DNA from: an uncultured Alphaproteobacteria bacterium
Lineage (GTDB): Bacteria; Pseudomonadota; Alphaproteobacteria; CAAHEQ01; UBA3637
Length of the DNA: 63,877 nt
NCBI GenBank assembly: GCA_937888725.1
Contig: CALARE010000092.1
Location: forward strand, 1-63,877
Direction: 5' to 3'
The translations under genes and the position numbers were made by a program. Shown here one piece after another: positions 2,885-48,101 of the stretch (the first letter of the stretch is position 1; each line of letters begins with the position of its first letter). Below the pieces are notes generated by a model. That model ran no database searches. It was not told the DNA's origin and saw nothing but the letters and a program-made list of their open reading frames with translations.

Positions 2885-4564
2885 TTAAAAATTTTCTTCT
2901 TCGATTTCGTCTTTTTTGGGTTCTTTAATTCGTCCAATTTGAGCTTTTGGAAAGACGCTTAAAACACTTTTAAGAGGTTCTGTCCTTTTTAAATCTTCAA
3001 TGACAAGACCAGTTTTAGCCTCTTTGTCTTCTTTTAGCGTGTTTGATTTGGCATCTTGTTGAATACTAATTTCCCATTGAATGCCAGTTTGTACAGTTAA
3101 AAATTTAGCCAACTCAGCACTAAAACCACGCGGCGAATCAGCTGTAAATGAACAAACAAGTCTCCCTTTTTCAATTTGAATAGGGCGAATATATGTTTCA
3201 ATATTAAAAGCAAGAAGACGTTCTTTTGCCTCTTTTGCAAGGTTTGAAATATCTTTAAGTGTTTTGATTTTGTCAGGGTCAAATAATGTTTTTGAAGTGG
3301 TTGGCACTTTTTGTGGTTGTATAACGTTTTGAATGGGTGCAACCTGAGGTGTCTGAATTGATTGTTTTTCAGACGGAAATACGGGTGTGTTATTGCCCGC
3401 TAAAGTGTTTTTTTTTATGTCAGATATAATGGTGTTTAGTGAGGGTAGTTCACTTAAAAAAGCAAGTCGAATTAACAGCATCTCCAATGCAATGAGTGGA
3501 TTGTCGGCTAATTTAACTTCATTAATTCCTTTTAATAAAATTTGCCATGTGCTTGTTAGTGTTGCCATTGAGAGTGTGTTAGCCAGCTCTTTCCCTTTTG
3601 TTCGTTCAGCTTCAGGTATTGTGTTATCATTGGCTAATTCAGGGATGATTTTAATCCTTGTCAACCAATGTGTCAGAGAGAGCAAATCTTGAGCCGTCAT
3701 CATCGGATCGCTACCTGCTGAATATTGAATTTGTAAATAATCAAGTGCTGTTTTTATGTCACCTTTCATTAATGCAGTATAAAGGTCAAACAAACTAGTG
3801 CGATCAGTAACACCCAGCATTTGACGGATATCGTCTGTTTTTAGATTATAATTAAATTGGGTCATTGCTTGATCCAATAATGATAAGGAGTCACGGCATG
3901 AACCATCACCAGCTCTTGCGATTAAACGTAAAGCATCTTCTTGAGCTTCAATCCCTTCTTTTTGTGCAATAGACATTAGGTGTTTTGTTAGCAAATCCTC
4001 ATCTAATCTTTTTAAATCAAAACGTTGACATCTTGATAAAATCGTAATAGGAACTTTTCGAATCTCAGTCGTAGCGAGAATAAATTTAATCCGTTCTGGT
4101 GGTTCTTCAAGCGTTTTTAATAATGCATTGAAGGCTGCTTTTGAAAGCATGTGAACTTCGTCAATAATATAAATCTTAAATCGTGCTGAAACAGGGTTGT
4201 ATTTAGCACTTTCAATAATTTCACGAATATTATCAACACCTGTATTGCTGGCAGCATCAATTTCAATTACATCAATATGCGAATCCGCGGCAATTTCTTG
4301 ACAATGTTTACAAACACCACAAGGATTTGGCGTCATTGACCCATTACCATCAGGCCCAATACAATTTAGTCCCTTGGCAATAATACGAGCAGAACTTGTT
4401 TTTCCAACACCACGAATCCCCGTGAGCATATAAGCATGCGCCAATCGATTGTGTTCAATAGCATTTGTAATCGTTTGTACGAGTGCATCTTGACCGACTA
4501 AATCATTAAAAACTTGCGGTCTATATTTTCTAGCTAAAACGTGTGATGAATTTTTCATACGCAA
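2885..4564 (-). CDS. dnaX: DNA polymerase III subunit tau/gamma
   Basis: RKYRPQVF start, Walker A GIRGVGKTSSARI, zinc module CGVCKHCQEI, Walker B IYIIDEVHML, sensor SRCQRF; 559 aa. Confidence 0.95.
   Translation of the reverse strand: MRMKNSSHVLARKYRPQVFNDLVGQDALVQTITNAIEHNRLAHAYMLTGIRGVGKTSSARIIAKGLNCIGPDGNGSMTPNPCGVCKHCQEIAADSHIDVIEIDAASNTGVDNIREIIESAKYNPVSARFKIYIIDEVHMLSKAAFNALLKTLEEPPERIKFILATTEIRKVPITILSRCQRFDLKRLDEDLLTKHLMSIAQKEGIEAQEDALRLIARAGDGSCRDSLSLLDQAMTQFNYNLKTDDIRQMLGVTDRTSLFDLYTALMKGDIKTALDYLQIQYSAGSDPMMTAQDLLSLTHWLTRIKIIPELANDNTIPEAERTKGKELANTLSMATLTSTWQILLKGINEVKLADNPLIALEMLLIRLAFLSELPSLNTIISDIKKNTLAGNNTPVFPSEKQSIQTPQVAPIQNVIQPQKVPTTSKTLFDPDKIKTLKDISNLAKEAKERLLAFNIETYIRPIQIEKGRLVCSFTADSPRGFSAELAKFLTVQTGIQWEISIQQDAKSNTLKEDKEAKTGLVIEDLKRTEPLKSVLSVFPKAQIGRIKEPKKDEIEEENF
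3408..3416 (-). other. A9 homopolymer inside dnaX (codons I383-K384-K385-N386); candidate slippage site for a gamma-like product
   Basis: T9 on the + strand. Both alternative frames hit stops within 3-7 codons (see finding). Confidence 0.4.
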
Positions 4565-4644
4565 ATCCTTTTAAATTTGCTGGGATAATAGCATATTTAT
4601 GCCTTTGGGTCAAGTGTCTACAATAAAAAGTTTAAAATTCTTTA

Positions 4645-5043
4645 TTACCCATTGTTGGTTAATGATAAAATTCTTTCAACCATGGCGTAAAAACCGTTTC
4701 TTCTTGTTGGTGAAAGGTGATCTTCAAGACCGAGTTTTTTAAAAATTTCCAACAAATTTAAATTTTGAATTTCTGATGCTGTTTTTCCATTAATTAGTGT
4801 TAGCAAAATAGCCTCTAGCCCACGAACAATAACAGCATCGCTGGTGGCATTAAAAAAATGTTTGTTATTTTCTGTGTAATGTGAAAACCAAACTGATGAC
4901 ATACAACCATCGACCTTATTTTGAGGGATTTTATCTTCTTCAATAAATGGAGGAAGTTGTTCACCAAGCTCAATAATATAACGATATTTATCTTCCCAAT
5001 TTTCAAGGTATGAAAAATTTTCAATGAGTTCTTCTGCTGTCAT
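4645..5043 (-). CDS. sufE: Cysteine desulfuration protein SufE
   Basis: 132 aa; ENWEDKYRYIIELG and active-site motif DGCMSSVW. Confidence 0.85.
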   Translation of the reverse strand: MTAEELIENFSYLENWEDKYRYIIELGEQLPPFIEEDKIPQNKVDGCMSSVWFSHYTENNKHFFNATSDAVIVRGLEAILLTLINGKTASEIQNLNLLEIFKKLGLEDHLSPTRRNGFYAMVERILSLTNNG

Positions 5044-5052
5044 TTTTATATT

Positions 5053-5262
5053 CTACTGATCTTTTTCGGCATCTTCGGGTGAAAGTTGCTCCATATCACT
5101 TTCTAATGCTGCGGCTGGTACTTCTTGTTCTATTTCAATTTGTTGTTGTTCTTGTTGCGAAGGTGTGTCTGTATAAACAGGTTTTTCTTTTTCTTTTGTT
5201 AGTCTATGTGCAAAAAATATTAAGATAACAATTAAAATTGCAGCAAGAATTTTTCTAATCAT
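5053..5262 (-). CDS. Small membrane-anchored acidic protein, function unknown
   Basis: N-terminal TM helix (ILAAILIVILIFFA) followed by a Q/E-rich tail. It ends 9 nt upstream of sufE on the same strand. Confidence 0.5.
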   Translation of the reverse strand: MIRKILAAILIVILIFFAHRLTKEKEKPVYTDTPSQQEQQQIEIEQEVPAAALESDMEQLSPEDAEKDQ

Positions 5263-5366
5263 GTTTTTATCCCTTTTGAAAAAAATTAAAGATGGGAAGT
5301 TGTTTTCTTTATATTCAGATGAAAAAAAAATAAAATCAAGGTTTTTCTTTTCTTTTTTTTTATTTT

Positions 5367-6074
5367 ATGTTAAAGTGTTTCAAAATGAAGTGGAATTTGA
5401 TATATTTAGATAGGACGACAAGTACGAATGATGTGGCAAAATCGTTGCCATTTCTTTCGGTTGTGGTTGCGAGGGAACAGACAAAAGGGCGTGGACGATA
5501 TGCTCGTAATTGGGTGAGTGAACCTGATAATTTGTTTTTTTCTGTTGTTTTAAAGGAATTTGGTGTTAAAACGCATTTATTGTCATTTGTTGTGGCAATT
5601 AGCGTGGCTGAAAGTTTAGCGTCATTAGCTGCTAAAATAAAATGGCCAAATGATATATTGATTAATGGCAAAAAAGTGGCTGGTATTTTGCTTGAACTTT
5701 TTGATGATAAGGTAATCGTTGGCATTGGTATTAATACAATGCAAATGCCCAAGGGGGATTTTGTATATCCTGTTGGTTGTTTAGATGGGGCTATAACAAA
5801 TGAAATTCTTTTGAATAATATTTTAAATAATTTATCTAACAATATAAAGATATTTGAAGAAAATGGATTTGAAAAAATTAGAGAGAAATGGTTGGGTTTT
5901 GCTTTAGGATTGGGAGAAGAAATAGTTGTAAAACTTCCCAAAAATATATATGAGGGGATATTTGAAGATATGACCAATGATGGGGCAATCCAGTTGAAAA
6001 TGAAAGATTTATCCTGCAAATATATAACCGCAGGTGATGTATTTTTATTAAATGAAGGAAAAAATAATGAATGA
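5367..6074 (+). CDS. birA: Biotin--[acetyl-CoA-carboxylase] ligase (group I, no HTH domain)
   Basis: GRGRYARNW biotin-binding loop and KWPNDILINGKKVAGIL. The start could be the internal ATG at 5385. Confidence 0.85.
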   Translation: MLKCFKMKWNLIYLDRTTSTNDVAKSLPFLSVVVAREQTKGRGRYARNWVSEPDNLFFSVVLKEFGVKTHLLSFVVAISVAESLASLAAKIKWPNDILINGKKVAGILLELFDDKVIVGIGINTMQMPKGDFVYPVGCLDGAITNEILLNNILNNLSNNIKIFEENGFEKIREKWLGFALGLGEEIVVKLPKNIYEGIFEDMTNDGAIQLKMKDLSCKYITAGDVFLLNEGKNNE

Positions 6075-7740
6075 AGATTTAGAAGAAATTATCATCCCAA
6101 AAGATAAATTGGTGTTTGTTCCAATTGGTGGTGCAACAGGTGTTGGGATGAATTGTTTTGCCTATGGATATCAAGGTAAATGGCTTGTTGTTGATTTGGG
6201 TGTTGGTTTTCCTGGCGATGGATTGCCTGGGGTTGATGTCTTATTGCCTGATGTCTCGTTTTTAGAAACGCATAAAAAAGATATTGTTGGTCTTGTCATT
6301 ACACACGGACATGAAGACCATATTGGTGCTGTTGGTAGGTTGTGGCGATCATTGCAATGTCCTATTTATTTGTCGGCCTTTGCCAATGAGTTATTGGAAA
6401 GTAAAATGGTTGAGGCTGGATTACTCGGTCGGGCGGATATTCATGTGTGTGAATTAGATTCTGAAATTGAGTTGGCGCCATTTGAAATAGAATTTATCTC
6501 GATGAGCCACTCAATTCCAGAGGCAAATGCACTTAAAATTAAGACAAAAAAAGGCGTTGTTGTACATACAGGAGATTGGAAATTGTCACCCGATCCTGTT
6601 TTGGGGCAAAAAACAAATGAAAAGCGGTTAAAAGCTATTGGAAAGGAAGGTGTTTTAGCACTTGTTTGTGATTCAACAAATGTATTTAGTCCTGAAACAG
6701 AGTTAACAGAAAGTGATGTTAAAAAAGAACTTGAAAAATTAATTGCTACATTTGATGGACGGCAAGTAGCGGTGGCTTGTTTTGCATCAAATGTCAGCCG
6801 TGTTAAAAGTATTTATCATGCCGCAAAGGTAAATGGGCGTGAAGTGTGCCTTATGGGGCGTAGTTTGTGGCGAATGGATGCAGCGGCTCGAGCTTGTGGT
6901 TATTTTGATGATGTGCCAGAATTTTTATCAGAGTCAGAAGCGTTGGAGCGGCCTGTTGGTTCAGTATTATATATTTGTACTGGCTCGCAAGGTGAACCCA
7001 GATCAGCATTAAGTAATTTGTCTGCACTAACACCACAAAAAAATTCGGTGTTTTTTGGCCCAGGTGATGTTGTTGTTTTTTCATCAAGAATTATTCCTGG
7101 AAATGAAAAGGCTATTGCTTTATTGCAAAAACGGTTTAAAACAAAAGAGGTTCAAATTGTAACAAATAAAGATGCAAATATTCATGTATCTGGTCATTTT
7201 TCTGGTAAAGAGCTTCAGCAAATGTACAAGTGGATTAAACCTAAAATTGCGTTGCCAGTTCATGGGGAGGCTAGGGAGCTGAATGAACATGTGAGATTAG
7301 CGTTGCAATGGGGGGCAAAATATGCTTATGCATTAGAAGATGGTGATGTTCTTGTCTTGGAGGATAATCCTGAGAAAATTGGGCAAGTTGAAAATGGTAT
7401 TCTTGCTGTCGATGGTAAGAAAATTTTATCATTGGGTGCAGAAGTTATTCGCAAACGGCGTAAAATGATTGAAGATGGAACAATGGTTGTAACGCTTGTT
7501 TTGAATTCAGAAAATGAAGTTCTTGGTCAGCCTAAAATATCATCTTTCGGCTTAATTGAAGATGGGGGTGAGGATGAGATGCGTTTAAAAAATGAAATTG
7601 TTGCTGATGTAAAAGCTTTGCAATCAGATATTGTTCGTGATGATTTGGTTGAAAATGCAATTAGAACAGCTGTCCGTCGTTTTTTAAAAGAGTTTTATGG
7701 GAAAAAGCCTTTAATTGAGGTGCATTTGGTTCGCGTGTGA
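6052..7740 (+). CDS. rnj: Ribonuclease J (metallo-beta-lactamase/beta-CASP)
   Basis: HGHEDHIG motif, HTGDWK, VHGEARE; 562 aa. Confidence 0.9.
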   Translation: MKEKIMNEDLEEIIIPKDKLVFVPIGGATGVGMNCFAYGYQGKWLVVDLGVGFPGDGLPGVDVLLPDVSFLETHKKDIVGLVITHGHEDHIGAVGRLWRSLQCPIYLSAFANELLESKMVEAGLLGRADIHVCELDSEIELAPFEIEFISMSHSIPEANALKIKTKKGVVVHTGDWKLSPDPVLGQKTNEKRLKAIGKEGVLALVCDSTNVFSPETELTESDVKKELEKLIATFDGRQVAVACFASNVSRVKSIYHAAKVNGREVCLMGRSLWRMDAAARACGYFDDVPEFLSESEALERPVGSVLYICTGSQGEPRSALSNLSALTPQKNSVFFGPGDVVVFSSRIIPGNEKAIALLQKRFKTKEVQIVTNKDANIHVSGHFSGKELQQMYKWIKPKIALPVHGEARELNEHVRLALQWGAKYAYALEDGDVLVLEDNPEKIGQVENGILAVDGKKILSLGAEVIRKRRKMIEDGTMVVTLVLNSENEVLGQPKISSFGLIEDGGEDEMRLKNEIVADVKALQSDIVRDDLVENAIRTAVRRFLKEFYGKKPLIEVHLVRV

Positions 7741-7814
7741 TAAAAAAAGGGGCTTGCGAAAAAAAATAAAAGGTGTTACTTTAAAAAGACGATATGTTAT
7801 AAAAAGGAGTATAC

Positions 7815-8621
7815 ATGACTGAAAAATATAATGTAATTTGTATCAAATGGGGTGGTTATTATAAGGCTAAGGATGTGAATAACCTTTGTTCAATGATAAA
7901 AAGAAACACTCGTTTTGATATTGATTTTTATTGTTTTACAGAAGATGGCTCTGGTTTAAATGAAGATGTTATTGTGAAACCGTTACCTGAATTTCAAAAT
8001 ATTAAAAAGGGTGAGGAAGAATATACAAAAAAATATGCTTATCGTAAAGAAGCTGGTCTATGTGATGATGAACTGGGTGGTCTTGCTGGGCAACGTGTTT
8101 TCTTTTTTGATTTAGACTCTTTGATTGTTGGTAATTTAGATGAATTTTTTATGTATCCACAAGATGAAAAGTTTTATATCATCAATGATTGGCATACAAA
8201 TGGTAACCATGTTGGACAAGCAAGTTGTTATTCTTGGGTTGTTGGAACGCTTGGATTTGTTAAAAAATATTTTGAGGAGCATCCCAAAGAGGTTGTTGAC
8301 AAATTTTATACCGCTTCACAAGAGTATTTATCATCAAAAGTGATTGAAAAGTGGGGGAGTTTAAATTTTTGGCCAGAAAATTGGTTTAAAAGTTTTCGTT
8401 TCCACTGTTTGCCATTTCCTTTGTTTCGATATTTTGTTGCACCTAAAATGCCAAAGGTTGATGGGATGAAAATGATTGCATTTCATGGCAATCCAGGGTT
8501 ACAAGATGCGATTAATGGTATTTGGTGCTCAAATCCGAATGATCGAAAATATCCAAGAGGGTATAAAAAGCTTTATAAACATGTGTTGCCATCAGAATGG
8601 ATTTTAGATTATTGGAAATAG
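7815..8621 (+). CDS. Putative glycosyltransferase (conserved IKWGxxY...V..L N-terminus)
   Basis: The VICIKWGGYYKAKDVNNL start matches, from my memory only, a family usually annotated as glycosyltransferase. The next gene (GT52-like) starts 1 nt after its stop. Confidence 0.35.
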   Translation: MTEKYNVICIKWGGYYKAKDVNNLCSMIKRNTRFDIDFYCFTEDGSGLNEDVIVKPLPEFQNIKKGEEEYTKKYAYRKEAGLCDDELGGLAGQRVFFFDLDSLIVGNLDEFFMYPQDEKFYIINDWHTNGNHVGQASCYSWVVGTLGFVKKYFEEHPKEVVDKFYTASQEYLSSKVIEKWGSLNFWPENWFKSFRFHCLPFPLFRYFVAPKMPKVDGMKMIAFHGNPGLQDAINGIWCSNPNDRKYPRGYKKLYKHVLPSEWILDYWK

Positions 8622-8622
8622 T

Positions 8623-9609
8623 ATGCGTACAATTAATCAAATTTTTATCGCTAATTCAGTTTACGCATTTTTTCTTTATTGTATGAAGTTTATTAAAGAG
8701 GTTGATAGTACATTGTTTGTATTGGGACCTTCTTGTGCTTTTGCTGAAGTTTCGCATTTTTTGCCAGTTGTTGCACCAGATGATAAAAAAGATTTGGATG
8801 CGTATAAAGAACTGATTAAGCGACAGGTTTTTTTCTTATTATCTGGGCGAAAAGTGCCTTGTTATGGCAATGTAGAAACGATATATTCTCAGTTTTTTAT
8901 TGAGACGTTTGATTTTTATCCGATGACTGATGGGTTGCGTGATACGGTAACATTTCCCATGTATTTGAAAAATAATTTGTTTAAAAAATGTTATACTGTT
9001 AGGTATTCAGGTGGTTTGGATTTGGTTCATCCACAGTTGGAATATATGGATATTAAACAGTTGTGGGAAGATTTGACAGTTGATGAGAAAAATAAAATAG
9101 CACGCATTTTTCTGTTGGAAAAGACGGCTTTTTTTGATTTGCAAAAAAAGAAAAAGATTCTAATTACACAACCCTTATTTGAAGATGGAATTTGTTCATT
9201 AGAAGACAAAATTAAAATTTATAAACAGATTTTATCTAATTATAATTTAAATGAAATTGTTATTAAACCACATCCTCGTGAGTCCACAAATTGGAAAGAA
9301 ATTTTTCCAGATGTGTCTGTTATGCCTCATCATATTCCATCTGAGGTTATTCCAATGATTGTTCCTGATTTGGATAAAGTGATTACTTTCTTTTCAACGG
9401 CAGCTTTTAATATGTTGAAACCTGAACAAATTGATTTTTATGCAAAAGATTTTAAACAGTTGCGTTATTATAAAACGGCCCCATATAAAGACAATGGTGT
9501 CCAATATAAACCAATTGCCTCTTTTGATGTAGAGGAAAAGTATAAGGTCTATGCGTTTAATTGGAAAAAAATTCCAGATGAAGATGGGTATTTTTATTCA
9601 AAAGATTAG
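8623..9609 (+). CDS. GT52-like glycosyltransferase (sialyltransferase family, Lst-like)
   Basis: The pattern resembles Neisseria Lst as I recall it: N-terminal IFIANSVYAFFLY, HP motif IKPHPRE, IPSEVIP, and ITFFSTAAFNM. Confidence 0.55.
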   Translation: MRTINQIFIANSVYAFFLYCMKFIKEVDSTLFVLGPSCAFAEVSHFLPVVAPDDKKDLDAYKELIKRQVFFLLSGRKVPCYGNVETIYSQFFIETFDFYPMTDGLRDTVTFPMYLKNNLFKKCYTVRYSGGLDLVHPQLEYMDIKQLWEDLTVDEKNKIARIFLLEKTAFFDLQKKKKILITQPLFEDGICSLEDKIKIYKQILSNYNLNEIVIKPHPRESTNWKEIFPDVSVMPHHIPSEVIPMIVPDLDKVITFFSTAAFNMLKPEQIDFYAKDFKQLRYYKTAPYKDNGVQYKPIASFDVEEKYKVYAFNWKKIPDEDGYFYSKD

Positions 9610-10124
9610 CTTTTGTTTTCTAAACGAGCTAATCCTAGTTGATAAACCATATCTCTGAGTGTGTCATCTTCAATGGAGGCTACTTTTGCTTTTAGTTCAT
9701 TGACTTGTTGTTCTGTAACGAATTTTTTGGGTGTAACAGGCGGTGGCATTTTAAAAGAAACTTTCCCTTGTGAAATTTTAATTTTCCCAACAGCAGGATA
9801 ACCAAAGAAAAAGTTAATTCGTTCAATAACTTTATGCTTTTGATGCTCAAATAAAATAGCAAATGCACCACCCGCACTTTTAACATGTAAAGTACCATTT
9901 ATGCGATTGTCTTTTTCAAATGTTAATTTTTCAGGTCTGATTCCTTTTGCTAAATGTTCACCAACAATATCGTCCCAATATGATAAAACATCAGTTCCAG
10001 CAAAGCCACGTTGCCCTAGAATGGGTTGGGTTATATTCTTTATTTCCATTGTTAAGCGTTCAAGACCTTCAAATGTTCTGCGTCTTTCTGCTGGTGGATT
10101 TTGTTTTGTATTTTGATTATTCAT
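9606..10124 (-). CDS. DUF721 (DciA-like) protein
   Basis: LGQRGFAGTDVLSYWDDIVGEHLA...GTLHV...AFAILFEHQKHKVIERIN follows the DUF721 pattern; 172 aa. Confidence 0.6.
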   Translation of the reverse strand: MNNQNTKQNPPAERRRTFEGLERLTMEIKNITQPILGQRGFAGTDVLSYWDDIVGEHLAKGIRPEKLTFEKDNRINGTLHVKSAGGAFAILFEHQKHKVIERINFFFGYPAVGKIKISQGKVSFKMPPPVTPKKFVTEQQVNELKAKVASIEDDTLRDMVYQLGLARLENKS

Positions 10125-10126
10125 TT

Positions 10127-11272
<1,146 letters not shown>

Positions 11273-36989: not shown

Positions 36990-37038
36990 AGGGGTATATT
37001 AACCAAAATCTTTTTAAAACGCAAGCAAAAAAAAGCTT

Positions 37039-37685
37039 TTAATTGGTTTTTTCTTGTGTCGTGTATTCTCTATATTGATATGTTTCAATAAGTGAAAAAG
37101 TGTGTGTTTTGTTATTAGGTAATTGAATGGATATTTGCTTTTCTGTTTCGTTTAAAATTTTAAAACATTCATCTTTTAAAATAGGACACATTGTTTGAGA
37201 GTCTTTTTTCCATACCCATAATAAAGAGAGATGATGAAAATCCTGCAACTCCTTTTGGTTTTAACCCTGTAATGAGTAAAAGTTCAAACGGGATATGTGC
37301 ATCGATTTGTTGGATGTTGGGACATAGATGGTTGAGGACTGTATGTGTTGGTTGATAATGTTTGTTGGGGTGATATTTAATGAACCAATCTCTTTCTCTA
37401 GTGCAGAGCCGTTTTAAGCCAGATAATTGTGTTGCGATATTCGGTTTTTTTTTAATCAGTTCCAAGAATGTAGATGAATGCATTTTTATTTTGCAGTTGA
37501 TTTTTGATTTTTTGGTAATCAAATCCTGCTAGTTTAAAAATTTTTTCTTTTTCATCAGTTGTTAATGTTGTGCCAATTTTATTAAAATTAATGTTAACGG
37601 GTGTTACCTGTTTTAAAATGTTGAATACGATGGGCATCTTACTATTTGACTGTCTTTTGGACAAAGTTTTTTCATATCGCCCCAA
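37039..37685 (-). pseudogene. Decayed paralog of the GT80-like gene at 33068..34351 (N-terminus missing, at least 2 frameshifts)
   Basis: Three ORF fragments in different frames align in order with the intact paralog. VTPVNINFNKIGTTLTTDEKEKIFKLAGFDYQKIKNQL pairs with IIPVDFHKIANELSKDDIKKLAKLTGIDLKKYQKNL. KYHPNKHYQPTHTVLNHLCPNIQQIDAHIPFELLLITGLKPKGVAGFSSSLF pairs with YKPHPSNYLTPTKKVLTHFCPNIQKMDAHLPFEFLILSKMTPKYVSGIGSSVF. Confidence 0.8.
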
Positions 37686-37800
37686 ATCACAATAAAAAAA
37701 TATTTTTTAATCAAGTAAAATTAAAAACCATTGTTATTGACAAAAAAGATGAAACGGTGTATTATTTTGGCAATTTAATTAGATAGAAAAGGATTATAAA

Positions 37801-40565: not shown

Positions 40566-40580
40566 TAGATATGACAGAAG

Positions 40581-40616
40581 AAAAGCCTCATGCCAGATCG
40601 TCATGGGGCTTTTTTG
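40581..40616 (+). terminator. Intrinsic terminator after frr
   Basis: AAAGCCTCATG..CATGGGGCTTT hairpin followed by TTTTG. Confidence 0.75.
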
Positions 40617-40704: not shown

Positions 40705-40869
40705 TTACATAAAAAATTCTTCATCTTCATCAGCAACTTCCATTGCAACAAATTCCTCCTCCTCATCAAGGGAGGAAGAGTTTTCTTTTTGCAGGATGTC
40801 CTTTTGAAGCACTGGCTTTCCCAATGGTTCAGATGTAAATAATGCTTTTAAAAGTTCAAGTAGAGTCAT
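40705..40869 (-). CDS. 54-aa acidic peptide translationally coupled to the GHKL gene (not in the ORF track)
   Basis: ATGA overlap: ATG at 40869..40867 shares two bases with the TGA stop at 40868..40866. Sequence: MTLLELLKALFTSEPLGKPVLQKDILQKENSSSLDEEEEFVAMEVADEDEEFFM. Confidence 0.55.
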   Translation of the reverse strand: MTLLELLKALFTSEPLGKPVLQKDILQKENSSSLDEEEEFVAMEVADEDEEFFM

Positions 40870-43800
40870 GTGTTTTTATCCTTTTTATCGGATAGAAATA
40901 TAGCTTTTAAATCCGTAAAATGTTTTCCCGTAAAATACAATTCTTTTGTTCTATTATTAAATGAAACTTCTATTTTTTTACTAGCTAAATTTGTAGAAAT
41001 ATCTATATTTTTAATTACGTTTCTTAATTCATTTAAAATTGGTTCATTGTTTCTAACCCATTCAATATATTCTGCTGCACAATTTGGACACAGTGCCAAA
41101 TATTGATATGGATATTCTCTTTCCATCTTTGAAAAAATTTGAACACTTTCAAAATGATAAGAACCATTTTTCTTTTTAAAAGGAAGTTCATTCTGACAAA
41201 ACTGACAAATCATAATATCATCTTCGTTTGTATATTCATTTTTAAGATAAACAGTTGTTGTTTCTTTTATATCTGAATTTGTTATTCTAATAGATCGTTC
41301 TTTTATTTCATACTGCTGATTTTGGGATGTAGAAAATTCTTCTTCCCGTTTTATTAATCTATTGTGAGCATTTTTAGTTTCAGAGCAAGGAAGAGTTGGT
41401 TTTTGTCTTTCTGACCTAATGGATTTTTTAAAAATCTCTTGAATATCAAGACCATTTTCTTCAGCTTGTTTAGCCCATTGAGCGAGAAATTCCATTTGTT
41501 GATTATCTTTAAATCCAGCTTTTTGAGCAAATTCGTTTTTTCGTTTTTCTTCCTCAATTCTTTCAGTTTCACTTTCTCCAAAACCAATTGCTTTTAAAAC
41601 TGGATTATTATAACCATCTTCCGGAATTGTCCAGCCATCTGGTAATCTTTCAAATGTCATATCTTCGGGGCAGTTTCTGTTCCCATCCTTATCTAAAATC
41701 CAACAGAGTTTTTTTAATCTATAGATATAAGCAGATGGACATTCATGTCTGGAATCTCTATTATTAGCCATGTAAACAGCTGTTAACGTGTCTTTGCCTG
41801 CTTTAATTATTGTTTCCCATATAATTTTAGAAGCTTTTTTTACTCTTCTAGGATGTATCATATCGAAAAAACAATATAATTTATAATCTATGTTACGGCA
41901 ATAATCAGTTTCATTTTTACCAGATGGATTTAATTTTGTTTCGTATAAAGGATTATCATGACAGTTACTGCTGATAATTTTTATTTCATGCCAAATTCCC
42001 AATTCTTTTAATAATAAAATAAAATCTGTTAATTCTTCTTTTTTTAATTTTTCTTTATACTCGGCAGAAAGTTCTTTTTTGCTTCCTTGAAAAAGAAAAT
42101 TAAAATCATTTTCTTCATAAATATTCCCTAGCATTAAAGAAGATGGTTTATAATAACATTTATCATCTCCAACAACAAAACTTGTTTCACGTAAATCATA
42201 TCTTTTTGATGGATATTCTTTTATTGCTTGAAGAATTATTTTAATATCTTTAATATTTTCCTCTATTGGAATTTTTTTAATGGGATAATCTGTATATTTT
42301 TCAATAAGTTCATCGCAAAGGGTTTCTATTGAATATTCTTTTATTCCCAACTCTTTGAAAATTGAAATCATTTCATAATCTTCTTTTTTGTTTTTTATAC
42401 AAAGTTCTGAATGTATAAAATCATATTTTTCAAGAATGTCGTTAGAAATATTTCCTTGGGGTTTTAAAAGGGGTTTATCATTTAGACTGATAACATTTTT
42501 GGCTTCTGTTAAAAATAAATCTATTGTCGAAACTTTTTCTTGATTATAATCATAATTATTAACATATTCTTTCACTTTTTGATATAACAATTTCAATTGA
42601 GGAATTTCTTTTTGTTTTAAAACATCTTTCCATAAGTTTCGTTTTTCAGAATTATACCATGAAATTCTAAGAGGAACATCATAATCAAATATCTTAATTA
42701 GATGCCGAAATAATTCATACCAGCCATAAGATCTAATATCTAAATCGTGTAAAAATTTATCAGCCCTTGAATTTCTTTGACTTGCATTTTTAACCCACAT
42801 GGGTGATTGACAATTATCATCGGTTTCTTCCAAATTTAAGATTTGTGCCAATTCATCATCTGATAAGAATGTATCTATTCTTTCTTCAGAAAAAAACAGC
42901 CCTGAAGCTGGGGCAAATTCTCCTGTTTTTGTAGGTGTTAAACTTTCTTCTTGGAATAATTTTATAATTTTAGAATGAAATCCTTTGTAAGCATCTGGTA
43001 AATCATCATCTCTATTTGGAAGAATTCGCAAAAAATCAGTAGATAGCATATTGTTATCTTTAATCCAAAATAAACTTTCTTTTTGCAATTCAACAAGAAT
43101 TGATAAAAGTTTTGCATTATCTTGTGTATCTCTAATACTAGCTCTAGAGATTTCACAGGCAAATGGTGCATTAATTAAAAATTTTAAATGGGAATCCTCT
43201 TTTTCAGCTGGAAACCATATAAAAACATTATGCTTTTGTGTTGAAGGAACAATTTTATATAATTTATTTCCATTATTATCTATTTCGGTATCTAATTGGT
43301 ATGCAATTGATACAGTAGTGGATATTTTATCTTCTGTTTCTATTTTAAAAAAAGGTTCCGTTCTTTGAAATTTTAAATATTCACATTCTTGGTTATGCCA
43401 ACCTTCTGCACTTAATAAAACAAAATGATTTTCTTCTACTTTTGTAATTATTTGAGTTGTTTTTCCATTTATCCATTTTATATGTGTAATGTTGTTTAAA
43501 AATAAAAGTGTTTCAGCTTTTAAGTTTTTTAATCCTTCTAAAATTTCTTGACAGGCAATTTCCTTTGGCTTCTCTTTGCGATTAAAAGGAAATTTAAAAT
43601 AGGTTATATTAGTATTAGGAAAATCTATTTTTTGTTCGATATTAACACGTTCTGGTATAACCATATCAGTTATTTTAAATTTCCATTTATCAGATATAAT
43701 TATCGGTGTATTTGTATAGGCATAAACGGCTTTAAATCCCACACCAAATTTTCCCACGCTTGTTCCATCATCTTTTTTTGTACTATTCGCAATATTTGTA

Positions 43801-44054
43801 ATTGAATCTATATCATACAATGAAAATAATTTATTTCCGTTATGGGAAAAAATGAGATAGTCTTTTCTTAAATCAAAAATCACTTCTGTTGCCTGAGCAT
43901 CTTCAGCATTTTGTATTAATTCATATATAAAATGAGCTTTATCAGGATAAAGGTCAGTTAATAATTTACGAAGACCAATATCAAAATTATTATCTTTGCT
44001 TGAGTTAACCCAATCCAGTCTTTTTTTTGCTAATTCCTCAAAAGATTTTACCAT
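40866..44054 (-). CDS. Sacsin-type GHKL (HATPase_c_3-like) ATPase, 1062 aa, with a C-terminal CxxC...CxxC zinc ribbon
   Basis: N-box FIYELIQNAEDA (aa 42-53), G-box GKFGVGFKAVY (aa 101-111), FLINAPFACEISRASIRD. The zinc ribbon CQFCQ...CPNC is encoded at 41079..41207. An AAGGA RBS sits in the 15-nt gap after the upstream gene. Confidence 0.8.
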   Translation of the reverse strand: MVKSFEELAKKRLDWVNSSKDNNFDIGLRKLLTDLYPDKAHFIYELIQNAEDAQATEVIFDLRKDYLIFSHNGNKLFSLYDIDSITNIANSTKKDDGTSVGKFGVGFKAVYAYTNTPIIISDKWKFKITDMVIPERVNIEQKIDFPNTNITYFKFPFNRKEKPKEIACQEILEGLKNLKAETLLFLNNITHIKWINGKTTQIITKVEENHFVLLSAEGWHNQECEYLKFQRTEPFFKIETEDKISTTVSIAYQLDTEIDNNGNKLYKIVPSTQKHNVFIWFPAEKEDSHLKFLINAPFACEISRASIRDTQDNAKLLSILVELQKESLFWIKDNNMLSTDFLRILPNRDDDLPDAYKGFHSKIIKLFQEESLTPTKTGEFAPASGLFFSEERIDTFLSDDELAQILNLEETDDNCQSPMWVKNASQRNSRADKFLHDLDIRSYGWYELFRHLIKIFDYDVPLRISWYNSEKRNLWKDVLKQKEIPQLKLLYQKVKEYVNNYDYNQEKVSTIDLFLTEAKNVISLNDKPLLKPQGNISNDILEKYDFIHSELCIKNKKEDYEMISIFKELGIKEYSIETLCDELIEKYTDYPIKKIPIEENIKDIKIILQAIKEYPSKRYDLRETSFVVGDDKCYYKPSSLMLGNIYEENDFNFLFQGSKKELSAEYKEKLKKEELTDFILLLKELGIWHEIKIISSNCHDNPLYETKLNPSGKNETDYCRNIDYKLYCFFDMIHPRRVKKASKIIWETIIKAGKDTLTAVYMANNRDSRHECPSAYIYRLKKLCWILDKDGNRNCPEDMTFERLPDGWTIPEDGYNNPVLKAIGFGESETERIEEEKRKNEFAQKAGFKDNQQMEFLAQWAKQAEENGLDIQEIFKKSIRSERQKPTLPCSETKNAHNRLIKREEEFSTSQNQQYEIKERSIRITNSDIKETTTVYLKNEYTNEDDIMICQFCQNELPFKKKNGSYHFESVQIFSKMEREYPYQYLALCPNCAAEYIEWVRNNEPILNELRNVIKNIDISTNLASKKIEVSFNNRTKELYFTGKHFTDLKAIFLSDKKDKNT

Positions 44055-44069
44055 GTGTTTTATCCTTTT

Positions 44070-47000
44070 TTATTCATGCACAATTTTAACAATTCCTGAT
44101 AAAATAGGTGTTCTATGTATGTCTGCAGTTTTTGAAATTTTATCTAATTCTTTCAATTTGTTTTGATATTCATTTTCAATTTTCAAAATCCAATTTTCTT
44201 GCATATCTTTAATCCCAGAAGACCTTTGTTTTGCTACATTTTTTCGAGCATTTGTTGAAACTTCAAGACTTTTTGTTTTGTAATCTTTCCATTGTTGAGT
44301 ATTAAGTTTGTGGTCTTCAGCGTCTTTTTGCCATAACAAATGAACTTCCTCTTTAATTTTTTGCCAAGCATCTTCAGGGAACTTTGTATCTGGAATTGGA
44401 GCTCCAACTTCCAATAAATTCAATAGATTTTCTTCTATCGCCTTTTCTGAACAAATCGCTTTTAATTTAATATTTGGTGTAAAACCTTTGTATTCCCAAG
44501 AAAAGATTTGAAAAGGATATTCTCCTTCAGGAATATCATTGTCTATAATTTTGAATGCAGTTCTAATTGGCATTTTAGACTCAAATTCATTTGCTGCAGC
44601 TATTACAAGAGGATGTAGCGGCATAATAAATTGAATATTTTGATCTATTCGTGCAGTTCCCATATCAAAAGTAATAGGAATTGTTTGATCAAAACCTTTT
44701 AAATAATTTTCCCAACTCTTATATATTTTTCCTTTTCTATGTGGTAATTTTAAATAATCATCCAATAAAAGTTGTTTTACTTCTTTTGATAAACGAAGAG
44801 AGCGTTTAGCTCCTGTCCCAGTTATTACATTAGAATTTGTTTTCTTTTGCAAATATGCAATAACTATTTTTTCTAGAGCAATAGGAGATATCCAATAATT
44901 TTCAAATTTTTCAACTTCCTTTTCGGATGTTAATTTGTTTGGAATGCAAAATAGTTCTAGTTGATGTTTTTCTAAATCCCTTTGTTCTAAAATACTTTGA
45001 TAGTGATTTTGAGCAATTTTTTCCAACTTTTTATCTTTTTGCTCAGGAGTTAATTTTGTATTTTCACAAACAGATTTAATTTCATTATGAATTTCACCAA
45101 GAATTTCATCACAATCCCCTATACTTTCTTGAAAGATATTAATTCTGTTCAAACATCTATAGTAAATACTTGCATCTATGGTTCCTTGAACGACCATATT
45201 GTATATTGCAACTGCTTCACTTTGTTGGCCAAATCTATCAATTCTACCAATTCGTTGCTCAATTTTCATTGGATTCCACGGTAAATCATAATTAATCATT
45301 GTATCGCAGAATTGATAATCTAATCCCTCACATCCAACATCAGAGAATAATAACACATCAAAAGAATCAGAATGATTTTCACTTTCTTTAAACCTGTTTC
45401 TGATTTGAACTCGTTCGGTATCATCAATTCCACCATGAATTAATCCAACTCGAATCCCTTTGTTTTCAAGTTGTTCTTTTAAGTAAGTTAATGTATGCCT
45501 AAATGTACTAAAAACAATTACCTTTTTATTCTCTAATGTTTGTTTTTCTTGAATCACTTTATAAAATGCTTCAAATTTCGGGTCATATGGTGGTAAATTT
45601 TCAGCTTCATAGATTAATTGATCAATTTCTTTTTTATATTTAATCAAAATATAATCATCTAATGAATTGCTATCTAAATCTTCATTAGAGGCAGAGATGT
45701 CGGAAAAATCTATGTCATCATTTTGAACGGTTTTATTAAAGATGGACCCGATAAGAGGAGATAATCCATGCAAGCAACTGGAAGCTTGGCGTTCTAATGT
45801 CGTCATCATGAATTTTACATTTGATGTCCCATGTAATTCTTCGAGTATCTTTGATTTTAAAGATATTAAATTGTCAAAAACAGATTGTTCTTCTTTACTA
45901 AATATAGCTTGAACTGTGTTAGAGTGGCGCATGCAAAAATCAGAAGCAACATCTTTTCTTTGAGTTCTGTTAATAATAGTCGAAAATGTGTGCATTTTAG
46001 ATAAGATATCAATGAGGGTAACTTTTTCTTCTAAAGACAAAACATCTTTTGCTAACATATCCATTACTTGTTTAAAATCAGGTCTTGATTTTATAAGATT
46101 CCCACCTGTTGTTTGAATAGCTGATAATAATTCATTTTTTGCGTTATTGTTTTTGTTTGCCCTGATATATCTTATAGCCGCATTTATATGCTTATTTGGT
46201 TGGTGCATAATATCAAATGTTTCCTTGTTTGGTAATAAATCTGGGCGTAAAAGATTTAATAAAACAAATAAATCATTATTTCCTAATTGAATAGGGGTTG
46301 CTGTTAAAAATACGATAGCTTCTGCAGACAAGCAAAATTGTTCCACAACTTGATGTCTAATTGCTTCTGGATTTTTAAGATGGTGTGCTTCATCCACAAT
46401 TACTAAATCAAAAGAAGGAAATGGGTTCAATTTTTTTAATATCTCTAAAGTATTTTTATCACAAATTGAAAATGGCAAAATTGCTTTTTTGTATTTTTCA
46501 GGCCATTCTCCTTCTATTGAGTATTCATCAATGCAATATTTAAGAGTGGATGAATCTAGTGTTTCAAAATCTTCATCAAATTTTTTCATTTCCTGTTCCC
46601 ACTTCCTCTCAGAAACGAGTGGTTTAGGGCAAATTACTAAAACAGATTTTAAATCATTTCTTATTTGTAATTCTCTTAAAATTAAACCAGCTTCAATTGT
46701 TTTACCAATTCCAACGCCATCTGCAATCAAAATTCTAGGTTGATCCGATTGCATTATTTTAATAACAGGTTTAAACTGATAAGGAATGGAATCGATTCTT
46801 GCAGCATTTAAAGAGTACAAGCTTGTCATTAAAGGTTGCCTAATAACAAATGATGTTAAATAATTTCTTACAGTTGATAATGGAATGAATGGATCTTCTT
46901 TTTTTTCAATACATTCTATTTGGTTAATATAAAAAGGCTTTATTTCTCCGTTAATAAATACAGATACTTCATTTCCATCAATTGATAAAACAACCCCTGT

Positions 47001-47570
47001 TATTGATGGGTTTGCTTTTATTCTAACAATTTTGTTTGGTTGTATTTGTTCTAATGATTTTGCTTCAAACGAATTTGTTATAGAAATAGGTTGTGATATA
47101 TTGGGTTCGATTATATCCTGTTCAATATCCTTAGATTTTATCATCAATTGTTTCACTGATGCTATGAATTCATCATTCGCACCAATTCCAGATAAAAAGA
47201 AATATAATGTATCTATATCTCTATTCATTTCTATATCAGAAAAATCATCAGTTTGATGTGCATACTTGTTTCTAATGATTTGCAATTCTTTTAAATAAGA
47301 TCTTAATTGCGGATTTAAATGATATTTAGAATTTAAATCATACCAGTTCTTGTCAAAAATTCTTAATAAACAAGATAAATCTAATTTATTAAGACTATCA
47401 ATTTGCTTTTGTTTTATCATTATATCTTGTTGGTATGATAATTTAGGTAAAACCATATTTTCCCAATAATTATCATCAATAGCAGTCATTTTAGTTTGAA
47501 GCCAAAAAGATAACTCTTTTTTTGCTTTAAATAAAGCATTTTGAATTTCTATAGAACGATTCATTTTCAC
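44070..47570 (-). CDS. HEPN-like (Swt1-type Rx4H) domain fused to a RapA-like Swi2/Snf2 ATPase, 1166 aa
   Basis: The N-terminus carries [14 protein letters not shown] (R100..H105, encoded at 47256..47273). Helicase motifs: I [75 protein letters not shown]. The last closely resembles RapA QRIGRLDRIGQ. Confidence 0.8.
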   Translation of the reverse strand: [1166 protein letters not shown]

Positions 47571-47635
47571 TCCTTATAAAATCATTTTAATATTATGTTA
47601 TACGCTTTTTTTACAAAAGTCTATACCGTAATTCT

Positions 47636-47675
47636 CGAGTGAGTCTCACTCGGAAAAGTGTTACACGATGTAACA
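47636..47675 (-). promoter_or_regulatory. Two adjacent perfect 7-bp palindromes between the 63-aa ORF and the helicase gene
   Basis: CGAGTGA-GTC-TCACTCG (47636..47652) and TGTTACA-CGA-TGTAACA (47659..47675). They lie upstream of an AT-rich TTGTAA...TAATAT promoter-like stretch (47590..47616) and the AAGGAG RBS of the helicase. Confidence 0.35.
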
Positions 47676-47677
47676 GA

Positions 47678-47869
47678 TTATTCTTTATCTTCATTTTTTG
47701 GTTTATATTCTTTAAAAGGTGTATCAGGATACATTTTTAAATAGATATCAAAAAAACGGTAAACCTTTTTATAAGGTAGACCTAGTCTGTGTAATCTGAG
47801 TAATTTTCCAGCTATTCCATATTTATTGCTTTTCATAATTTGGTGGGCTTTATATAAATCAAAAATCAT
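47678..47869 (-). CDS. Hypothetical 63-aa basic protein
   Basis: Strong RBS AAAGGAGAAAAAAAA before the ATG. No recognisable motif (MIFDLYKAHQIMKSNKYGIAGKLLRLHRLGLPYKK...). Confidence 0.45.
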   Translation of the reverse strand: MIFDLYKAHQIMKSNKYGIAGKLLRLHRLGLPYKKVYRFFDIYLKMYPDTPFKEYKPKNEDKE

Positions 47870-47887: not shown

Positions 47888-47916
47888 GAAAAAAAACTGC
47901 CTAAATGGGCAGTTTT
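47888..47916 (-). terminator. Intrinsic terminator (minus strand)
   Basis: AAAACTGCC-CATTTA-GGCAGTTTT on the minus strand, followed by a T-run of ~8. Confidence 0.7.
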
Positions 47917-47994
47917 GTTATGTTAAAAAGTGTTTTTAAGTTTGTAAATTAATTGTATTATATCAATTAGGCGTTGTCAAATAGATGAAGAAAA

Positions 47995-48025: not shown

Positions 48026-48101
<76 letters not shown>

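Follow-up and report, generated by a model that had tools for sequence, protein, structure and literature searches.

A conserved pair of a HEPN-Snf2 protein and a sacsin-type GHKL ATPase forms a putative, strain-variable defence module in an uncultured alphaproteobacterium

What is the role of an operon in which one gene fuses a HEPN domain to a Snf2 motor, the next encodes a sacsin-type GHKL ATPase and the last a small acidic peptide? The question is raised by positions 40705-47570 of a 63,877-nucleotide stretch of DNA (contig CALARE010000092.1 of assembly GCA_937888725.1, from an uncultured Alphaproteobacteria bacterium), the whole of which is referred to below as the window. The initial annotation, made from the sequence alone, proposed an undescribed conflict system of three components. 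Our analysis shows that the Snf2 and sacsin-GHKL genes (genes 1 and 2) are a real, conserved two-gene module, and that the locus is an unnamed two-gene variant built from known defence parts, not a categorically undescribed three-gene system. The module has been acquired horizontally and varies between strains, and its most likely role, judged from sequence and genomic context, is an as yet uncharacterised defence against phages or plasmids.

The open reading frame (ORF) list of the window gives three frames on the minus strand, at 44070..47570, 40866..44054 and 40705..40869. Reading of the sequence bore out the layout first described in all its parts: the 15-nucleotide spacer from the gene 1 stop to the gene 2 ATG is aaaaggataaaacac, with AAGGA inside it, and the gene 2 stop (TGA) overlaps the gene 3 start (ATG) in an ATGA. 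A chance origin of frames of 1164 and 1062 codons at a guanine-plus-cytosine (GC) content of 26-30% is impossible; the flanks of the cassette have 32-37% GC. For gene 1, a GTG is listed as the start; two codons downstream of it stands an ATG (47564), preceded at 7 nucleotides by AAGGAG, and the 1164-residue form beginning at this ATG fits all homologs. This puts the HEPN motif at R98-NKYA-H103 and the Walker A lysine at K288; the Rx4H motif of the initial annotation is present, but the length of 1166 residues and the numbering R100, H105 and K290 have to be shifted. The parts of the three genes are as follows.

44070..47564, minus strand: gene 1, HEPN-Snf2 protein of 1164 residues (ORF and translation; Pfam, PADLOC and NCBIfam matches)
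47145..47564, minus strand: HEPN domain belonging to the Swt1 family, all-helical (gene 1 residues 1-140; PF18731)
47256..47273, minus strand: HEPN active-site motif R98-N-K-Y-A-H103, Rx4H (translation)
46905..47042, minus strand: small beta-barrel after a disordered linker (gene 1 residues ~175-220; AlphaFold strands 179-218)
45075..46832, minus strand: Swi2/Snf2 motor of the RapA/DrmD type (gene 1 residues ~245-830; Pfam and RapA matches)
44073..45074, minus strand: family-specific C-terminal domain, alpha/beta with a long coiled coil (gene 1 residues 831-1164)
40866..44054, minus strand: gene 2, sacsin-type GHKL ATPase, TmtA-like, 1062 residues (ORF and translation; Pfam, NCBIfam and PADLOC)
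43155..44054, minus strand: Bergerat-fold GHKL head with the following beta-rich domain (gene 2 residues 1-300; E45, N49, D52; G101-K-F-G-V-G-F-K108)
41355..43154, minus strand: helical and beta-hairpin middle region (gene 2 residues 301-900; predicted local distance difference test score, pLDDT, mostly 75-93)
41055..41237, minus strand: HNH-like zinc finger CxxC...CxxC (gene 2 residues ~940-1000; profile alignment to the McrA HNH domain)
40705..40869, minus strand: gene 3, acidic peptide of 54 residues with 15 D+E and 4 K+R (translation)

The N-terminal domain of gene 1 is a HEPN domain belonging to the Swt1 family, in concordance with the first assignment: Pfam HEPN_Swt1 (PF18731) matches residues 13-128 with E 5.4e-13 and 49.7 bits (cut-off 27.5), and in the AlphaFold model, which was built from 18 homologs and has a mean pLDDT of 74, the domain consists of eight helices with pLDDT 83-92. 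Of the roughly 50 sequences with the HEPN domain in an alignment of 71 gene 1 orthologs, 48 keep R98 and 48 keep H103; alignment A2 shows no variation at N99 and a conservation of 90% or more at R98, A102 and H103. The domain is a predicted RNase and would act as a metal-independent endoribonuclease. The small beta-barrel that follows may be Tudor-like.

The remainder of gene 1 is a RapA-like Snf2 protein with intact motifs, as had been proposed. Both SNF2-rel_dom and Helicase_C match above their Pfam cut-offs, RapA is the best match of solved structure (profile search of the PDB, E 5e-54; Foldseek, E 1.5e-30 over ~1100 aligned columns), and GxGKT, DEAH and QRxGRxxR are kept in every ortholog of the 71-sequence alignment that has residues at those positions. 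The C-terminal region, which has no match in Pfam and had been left as unrecognised, turned out to be a part common to the DrmD/RapA-like lineage: the best PADLOC-DB match of the protein, DrmD model PDLC02623 (E 1.6e-113), covers residues 197-1033, and the whole protein aligns structurally to RapA. (PADLOC matches are reported throughout by E-value or bit score, without PADLOC's own thresholds.) The HmaA model of PADLOC matches as well (E 3.9e-53). Against the NCBIfam equivalogs the protein reaches 315 bits for DISARM_DrmD (cut-off 610) and 217.8 bits for RapA (cut-off 576). More than 6000 homologs of gene 1 were found at E ≤ 1e-5, and its C-terminal domain is conserved in 71 of the 80 related loci described below.

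Gene 2 was correctly read as having a sacsin-type GHKL head. It is matched by Pfam SACS (75.8 bits, cut-off 32.8) and NCBIfam P_loop_sacsin (89.3 bits, cut-off 50), its translation contains both ELIQNAEDA and GKFGVGFKAVY, and the GHKL residues E45, N49 and D52 and the loop G101-K108 are invariant among 19 gene 2 homologs (alignment A1). Sacsin SR1 is the most similar structure to the head in a profile search of the PDB; in the model of the protein (pLDDT 80) only this N-terminal head resembles sacsin SR1, Hsp90 and MutL by Foldseek. Neither the middle region nor the C-terminus has a Pfam match. Over most of its length the protein resembles the defence protein TmtA: eight PADLOC TmtA models match it, the best being PDLC03972 (E 1e-54, 184 bits), in which residues 5-1045 of gene 2 align to positions 7-1051 of 1302.

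The supposed zinc ribbon near the end of gene 2 reads as a finger of another kind. Its cysteines C950, C953, C989 and C992 align to McrA's HNH domain (residues 208-278 of 6ghc, E 7e-5), and the catalytic histidines are replaced: the 'LEVHH' and 'CPNCH' of McrA are 'FEavQ' and 'CPNCA' in the gene 2 family profile, and gene 2 itself has 'SV/Q' and 'A' at the positions of the 'HH' and the final 'H'. A degenerate finger of this kind (CxxC...CxxC or CxxC...CPNH) is present wherever the motif was read among the 80 loci. With moderate confidence we regard it as a putative HNH-derived structural or DNA-binding element. A NOV_C/DUF3883 nuclease was searched for in the whole of gene 2 and in its C-terminal 213 residues and gave no match.

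In a clade whose gene 2 is ~40% identical to that of the window (P0004-P0016 and L001; P and L numbers denote related proteins and loci), the protein has an extra C-terminal domain of ~60 residues that the window's gene 2 does not have. The profile of this tail resembles the C-terminal Tudor domain of UvrD/PcrA (7egt_B, E 2e-5), with sub-threshold Pfam matches to PcrA_UvrD_tudor, DUF3553 and CarD_TRCF_RID. The UvrD/PcrA-type Tudor domain is a type of domain that binds RNA polymerase.

That genes 1 and 2 belong together is seen across genomes, as the initial annotation had expected. With one genome scanned per species, 80 loci with gene 2 relatives of 27-38% identity were collected; they span ~14 phylum-level lineages in a patchy distribution, among them the Proteobacteria classes, Desulfobacterota, Actinomycetota, Acidobacteriota, Planctomycetota, Verrucomicrobiota, Bacillota, Cloacimonadota and Binatota. 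In 70 of the 78 testable loci, tblastn detected, on the same strand and immediately upstream, a gene-1-type Snf2 gene that includes the C-terminal domain, as a rule 8-100 nucleotides away. The other ten of the 80 comprise two without upstream DNA, one whose gene 1 relative lies on the other strand and seven of another architecture. In the reverse look-up on long contigs, all four gene 1 homologs (in five places) have a SACS-domain gene immediately downstream. The part specific to gene 2 (residues 400-1062) is found in 1002 clusters at 50% identity, 755 of them at E ≤ 1e-10, among 1.84 billion representatives. A lack of co-occurrence of the two genes, which the initial annotation had named as a refutation, is clearly contradicted by these results. 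Phage genomes gave one partial match, to the GHKL head only, and the pair is therefore not a phage gene set.

In the locus with the opposite-strand partner (L058:2997-13159), the gene 1 relative (6072-9554) and the gene 2 relative (at 10001) are arranged head-to-head, and further gene-2-like matches lie near 3000-6000; there may be two copies. On the archaeal plasmid NC_019972.1 of Methanomethylovorans hollandica (~128156-132492), a Snf2 gene adjoins a gene for a sacsin-head 'HSP90 family chaperone', which suggests that the pairing of Snf2 and GHKL proteins extends beyond bacteria.

By length, the orthologs of gene 1 form two classes: those of ~1170-1245 residues have the HEPN domain, and those of ~1008-1050 residues are without it. 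We considered whether an active HNH domain in gene 2 compensates in the shorter class and rejected this, the catalytic histidines being missing in both classes. In the seven loci of other architecture (e.g. L024, from Paraburkholderia), the gene 2 relative is the last gene of a longer operon that has an HTH (helix-turn-helix)-Snf2 gene of another DrmD type, a stand-alone protein of the AbiJ/Abi_C group, which is a HEPN family, the methylase and the Res subunit of a Type III system and a PDC-S06 ABC-type ATPase. A conjugative plasmid of Ensifer (L092) has a HEPN-less pair followed by a RecB-like protein with PD-(D/E)xK and superfamily 1 (SF1) helicase domains. Because the variants differ in having the HEPN domain, an AbiJ-type protein or a RecB-like nuclease, the constant core is the Snf2 and sacsin-GHKL proteins and the nuclease module is swappable. 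Two loci (L003:9486-9952 and L009:9261-9841) have pairs of small ORFs between genes 1 and 2, by eye toxin-antitoxin-like (RelE/YafQ-like and PIN-like), so the pair tolerates insertions.

The surroundings of the related loci match the expected picture of defence islands. Neither a third gene nor a methylase is conserved among the 121 ORFs that lie nearest to the pair in 67 loci (N6_Mtase in 2 of 121). These neighbours include Type I restriction endonucleases, BrxL, PglZ, BrxD, Type IIG enzymes, HmaC, ZacA and QatD, together with PDC-S36, PDC-S68, mad2, integrases, transposases and ordinary metabolic genes. The loci from the reverse look-up are flanked by GmrSD, Type I restriction-modification (R-M) genes, PLD-helicase, DndB, WYL regulators and integrases, and copies of the pair lie on conjugative plasmids. 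The pair thus sits in the context of a defence island or hotspot, with variable flanks rich in R-M, BREX and integrase genes.

In the window the cassette stands between frr and orf63/tRNA-Thr(CGT), with gltX and hda further out. As first reported, there is no methyltransferase, no integrase and no second nuclease between frr and tRNA-Thr. Comparison of contigs that encode an identical Frr protein revealed four states of this site. In the first, the cassette is intact (L083, also returned as L087, and L084). In the second (L086, region 10478-11268), TGG has become TGA at W74 of gene 1, within the HEPN domain (window ~47343-47345), with genes 2 and 3 and the rest of gene 1 intact; this nonsense allele may reflect counter-selection against an active RNase. 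In the third (L089), 6.6 kb corresponding to window 40888..47487 are deleted, which leaves gene 3 whole but only the first ~25 codons of gene 1 and the last ~6 of gene 2. Both breakpoints are seen in L089 and the one on the gene 1 side in L088, and L090 and L091 have the same layout, with gene 3 and without genes 1 and 2. In the fourth (L085:10872-16844), a DUF4011/SF1-helicase/MTES_1575 protein of 1990 residues, which PADLOC models PDC-S37 (1076 bits) and Hhe (753 bits) match, replaces genes 1 and 2 (window 40870-47564), and gene 3 is kept.

L089 and the window share ~99% identity across most of the flanks, namely frr, orf63, hda and the greater part of the intergenic sequence; two short stretches just upstream of gene 1 have 93-95%, the gene 1 remnant 77% and gene 3 79%. 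The variable unit delimited by this diverged block runs exactly from the start of gene 1 to the stop of gene 3. The frr/tRNA-Thr site is a defence-type hotspot with alternative cargo, and its variation looks like replacement or deletion of a cassette between conserved flanks. Integration at the tRNA was considered and rejected, as there is no direct repeat of the tRNA-Thr 3' end around the island and no integrase.

We weighed what such a cassette would do. The explanation that we favour, with somewhat better than even confidence, is a mobile, strain-variable defence-type cassette in which a motor-clamp core activates a HEPN RNase against phages or plasmids. Under this scheme the GHKL protein of gene 2 would sit on nucleic acid as a clamp or sensor that dimerises and is gated by ATP, like MutL, MORC and Hsp90-type proteins, and the Snf2 motor of gene 1 would provide DNA translocation, possibly with RNA polymerase. 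HEPN domains are generally dimeric, with composite active sites; recognition of invading phage or plasmid DNA would bring two of them together to form an active RNase, and cleavage of RNA would halt the invader or the infected cell in an abortive type of protection. The HEPN-less pairs would presumably use the same motor-clamp core alone or with other effectors. The GHKL-controlled nuclease VcSduA, a validated defence precedent, supports the clamp proposal. What the sequences show are the identities of the domains, their conserved catalytic residues, the strict pairing, the mobility and the defence context; from these we infer the physical complex of the two proteins, its trigger, the RNase activity and the immunity phenotype.

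Several points weigh against this explanation. The HEPN domain is missing in 16-17 of the 67 complete pairs, about a quarter, and a search within 1 kb upstream of 19 HEPN-less loci gave no consistent candidate for a separate HEPN gene. The RNase effector is therefore not essential to the core, and the initial proposal that a sensor licenses a HEPN RNase cannot be the whole mechanism, although the HEPN and ATPase motifs on which it was based are intact. No active DNase is recognisable in the gene 1 or gene 2 protein. The TmtA match of gene 2 is weak per residue (184 bits across ~1040 residues). The defence genes among the neighbours, at least ~17 of 121, are a plain count without comparison to a genomic background, and no publication was found that reports immunity from the pair.

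The first alternative, which we judge unlikely but which keeps an appreciable share of our belief, is interference at the level of DNA without a dedicated nuclease. The core would bind, compact or strip the DNA, or block its replication or transcription, in a MORC-like manner or as in xenogeneic silencing, and the HEPN domain would be no more than an optional suicide effector that some lineages acquired as a backup. This would account for the HEPN-less pairs, in which both ATPases are always intact, for the universal retention of the degenerate HNH finger, which fits a binding module, and for the related pairs that sit within DNA-acting Type III R-M operons; a 'backup effector' role for HEPN has moreover been proposed for BREX-related systems (PMC12839542). 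What counts against it is that the HEPN dyad is strongly conserved wherever the domain is present (the 48 of ~50 orthologs above) and that the natural nonsense allele suggests an active, costly domain.

The second alternative, for which we see a rather small chance, is transcription-coupled surveillance, with the pair recruited to RNA polymerase in the manner of RapA and the HEPN domain cutting nascent or foreign transcripts once the polymerase works on invader DNA, is hijacked or stalls. RapA is an RNA-polymerase-associated Swi2/Snf2 ATPase and the closest structural and profile match of gene 1, the ~40%-identical relatives of gene 2 have the UvrD-type Tudor tail, and the effector is an RNase. 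The window's gene 2, however, is without the Tudor tail, and gene 1 misses the RapA cut-off (217.8 versus 576 bits); what gene 1 has in common with RapA may come down to a bacterial Snf2 lineage to which both belong, as does DrmD.

The third alternative is that of a three-component system in which the 54-residue peptide of gene 3 is an obligatory coupled regulator, antitoxin or adaptor. The gene 3 ORF is probably real, to judge from its conservation: its frame is intact in nine related contigs and its termini are conserved (MTLLELLK..LFTSE and EEE.VAMEVADEDEEFFM) around a fast-evolving middle. It is joined to gene 2 by the ATGA overlap, it has a copy of the gene 2 initiation context (AAGGA-spacer-ATG), it lies within the diverged block and not in the 99% flank, and the homology between the window and the related locus L081 ends exactly at its stop. 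These features would suit a coupled component. Nothing like gene 3 follows gene 2, however, in any of the 80 diverse loci or in L082, whose gene 2 is 49% identical, and gene 3 stays intact where genes 1 and 2 have been deleted (L088-L091) or replaced by the Hhe-type gene (L085). No family in Pfam, PADLOC or NCBIfam matches it. On the strength of this absence and this persistence, gene 3 is a local, clade-restricted add-on outside the conserved core; the peptide could not be upheld as a component of the system, and we consider the obligatory role improbable.

We also considered gene 3 as a split-off tail of gene 2 and rejected it, the tail of the longer relatives being the unrelated UvrD/PcrA-like Tudor domain. 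On the minus strand, the start context of gene 3 (40867-40888, ATAAAAAGGATAAAAACACATG), which sits within the last codons of gene 2, and that of gene 2 (44052-44073, ATAAAAAAGGATAAAACACATG) are near-identical 22-mers. The acidic-aromatic end of the peptide (40705-40761, ...ADEDEEFFM) recalls, as our own speculation, the C-terminal tips of single-stranded DNA-binding (SSB) proteins. In L081, where gene 2 is 86% identical and the context is another one, without frr, a second small acidic ORF (MTYLNKFFGNLLLDEENALDNRPMQVWDEE) follows gene 3 (L081:4983-5329).

A housekeeping role, in which a RapA-like protein recycles polymerase beside a Hsp90/sacsin-like chaperone or in RNA quality control, would fit the RapA and sacsin/Hsp90 similarities and the frr, gltX and hda flanks of the window, but it is very improbable in view of presence and absence among strains with identical Frr, low GC, plasmid carriage, variable defence-rich neighbours and a patchy taxonomic distribution.

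The elements around the cassette in the window are the following.

48026..48101, minus strand: tRNA-Thr(CGT) (ARAGORN; Rfam tRNA 72.4 bits)
47952..47980, minus strand: promoter-like TTGACA-17-TACAAT, upstream of orf63 and the operon (consensus scan, 11 of 12 matches)
40576..40610, no strand assigned: hairpin with T-run, flanked by gene 3 and the convergent frr (direct reading)

The tRNA-Thr gene is the sole match in an Rfam scan of the island. It is 100% identical in a strain without the cassette and marks the upstream edge of the variable site, outside the cassette itself. The element at 47952..47980 is a putative promoter by its consensus match, and the hairpin at 40576..40610 is probably a bidirectional terminator to judge from its stem and T-run; it was not among the output of the terminator scan, in which loops were limited to 8 nucleotides.

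Directly upstream of gene 1 lies orf63 (47678-47869, minus strand), a small basic ORF (MIFDLYKAHQIMKSNKYG...) that has no match in Pfam or PADLOC, is 99.5% identical in the cassette-less L089 and has a called counterpart of 63 residues in the corresponding place in L088 and L090. It is preceded by a terminator-like hairpin (47893-47916) and by the promoter-like element. Between the orf63 stop and the ribosome-binding site of gene 1, two neighbouring palindromes occupy 47634-47675 (minus strand), TGTTACA-tcg-TGTAACA and CGAGTGAG-a-CTCACTCG; both are recognisable in L086 and L089 with one or two differences. They may be operator sites, since their loops are too short for good RNA hairpins. Elsewhere in the window, at 36990-37800, a 117-residue fragment of a PM0188 sialyltransferase (ORF 37169-37522, minus strand) lies between a gyrB/parE-like gene and gltX. 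L084 has a PM0188 gene of 462 residues in this interval, which is ~750 nucleotides longer there, and the interval looks like a second strain-variable or decaying locus.

Should the favoured explanation hold, the module would keep the sensor-like GHKL body of Tiamat, the single-gene system formed by TmtA, and pass the effector role to a separate, HEPN-bearing Snf2 protein. The natural variants (with HEPN, without HEPN, with an AbiJ-type HEPN and Type III R-M, with a RecB-like nuclease, and with the Tudor tail) form a comparison set for the question of how invaders are sensed by GHKL clamps and Snf2 motors and how effectors are turned on, and the species of the window offers a second comparison at one site, with the intact cassette, the HEPN nonsense allele, the deletion and the Hhe-type gene. 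A bolder and in our estimate doubtful proposal is that the pair is a distinct and widespread 'two-gene Tiamat-like' immune system, in which GHKL dimerisation would license the HEPN RNase on an RNA-polymerase-linked motor that surveys the transcription of foreign DNA, and which would also be a prokaryotic precedent for the coupling of GHKL and HEPN in human sacsin. If true, the link to RNA polymerase or the parallel to sacsin would reach beyond phage biology.

How, then, does the pair compare with the systems already named? Standard tools would probably label the locus from its TmtA and DrmD matches. The initial view that it lies outside the named systems has to be qualified by these model matches, but it stands in that the defining features of Tiamat, DISARM and Hma are not found at the locus and that searches of the literature on combinations of Tiamat/TmtA, sacsin, GHKL, Snf2, DrmD and HEPN found no name or description for the pair.

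Tiamat (TmtA) is a validated single-gene anti-phage system (Millman et al. 2022, according to reviews; the name Tiamat does not occur in the 2022 preprint of that paper) that reviews of 2025-2026 still list without a mechanism, and it has been placed among single-gene systems with a PD-(D/E)xK domain (preprint, bioRxiv 10.1101/2024.10.26.620412). Gene 2 shares with it the N-terminal sacsin-type GHKL head and the next ~400-600 residues, as seen in the TmtA model matches. Tiamat-type relatives, in contrast, stand alone and end in a C-terminal NOV_C/DUF3883 domain, whereas gene 2 is paired with a Snf2 gene, has no NOV_C and has a degenerate HNH finger. More distant relatives of gene 2, in which the likeness is limited to the first ~400 residues, carry the annotation DUF3883, and one of them on a Sulfuricurvum plasmid, which adjoins a Qat system, has SACS and NOV_C (PF13020, E 6e-17) and matches TmtA PDLC03972 with 279 bits. 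By these comparisons gene 2 reads as a Tiamat-like body without the nuclease of Tiamat.

Gene 1 belongs to the same RapA-like bacterial Snf2 lineage as DrmD, the Snf2 helicase of class 1 DISARM (the PDLC02623 match), with a score that stays below the NCBIfam DISARM_DrmD cut-off. Unlike DISARM, the cassette has no DrmA, DrmB, DrmC or DrmMI/DrmMII methylase beside it, and gene 1 adds a HEPN domain and has another partner. RapA (HepA) of E. coli is the best profile and fold match, but gene 1 scores below the equivalog cut-off, is accessory and mobile and not core, and carries HEPN, so that the likeness is one of fold only.

Passages of Anantharaman et al. 2013 (PMC3710099) describe multiple independent fusions of HEPN domains to SWI2/SNF2 helicases in R-M-like contexts and place Swt1/Abi2-family HEPN domains in conflict systems. 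The HEPN-Snf2 fusion as such had thus already been noted in general terms in 2013, while no paper was found that names the pair, and neither the sacsin-GHKL partner nor a methylase-free two-gene module occurs in those passages.

VcSduA (Shedu type I-D or paraMORC3, PMC12137116) has a GHKL ATPase with a clamp-like middle domain that is proposed to control a nuclease, and its protection requires the ATPase and the nuclease alike. Its GHKL is of the paraMORC type with a fused PD-(D/E)xK domain; here the GHKL is of the sacsin type and the HEPN domain is on a separate Snf2 protein. The Hma system (HmaA, Snf2-NOV_C; HmaB, methylase; HmaC, HEPN-DUF499), one of the BREX-related systems centred on DUF499, likewise combines a Snf2 protein with a large ATPase and often a Swt1/Abi2-type HEPN domain. 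It differs in that HEPN is on the ATPase and not, as here, on the helicase, in that its ATPase is STAND/AAA+ and not GHKL, and in having a methylase and NOV_C. Gene 2 gave no match to HmaC at E ≤ 0.1, and the HmaA match of gene 1 runs through the shared Snf2 core only.

Eukaryotic sacsin, with its GHKL repeat regions, also couples a sacsin-type GHKL to HEPN in function, and its SR1 is nearest to the head of gene 2; its HEPN domain, however, is of another family and C-terminal, and it has no Snf2 domain. Passages of PMC3710099 propose that the HEPN domain of sacsin is derived from toxin-antitoxin systems, and the resemblance may be convergent. The two-gene combination is unnamed, and the parts from which it is built are known ones: a TmtA-like GHKL protein, a DrmD/RapA-like Snf2 motor and a HEPN domain belonging to the Swt1 family.

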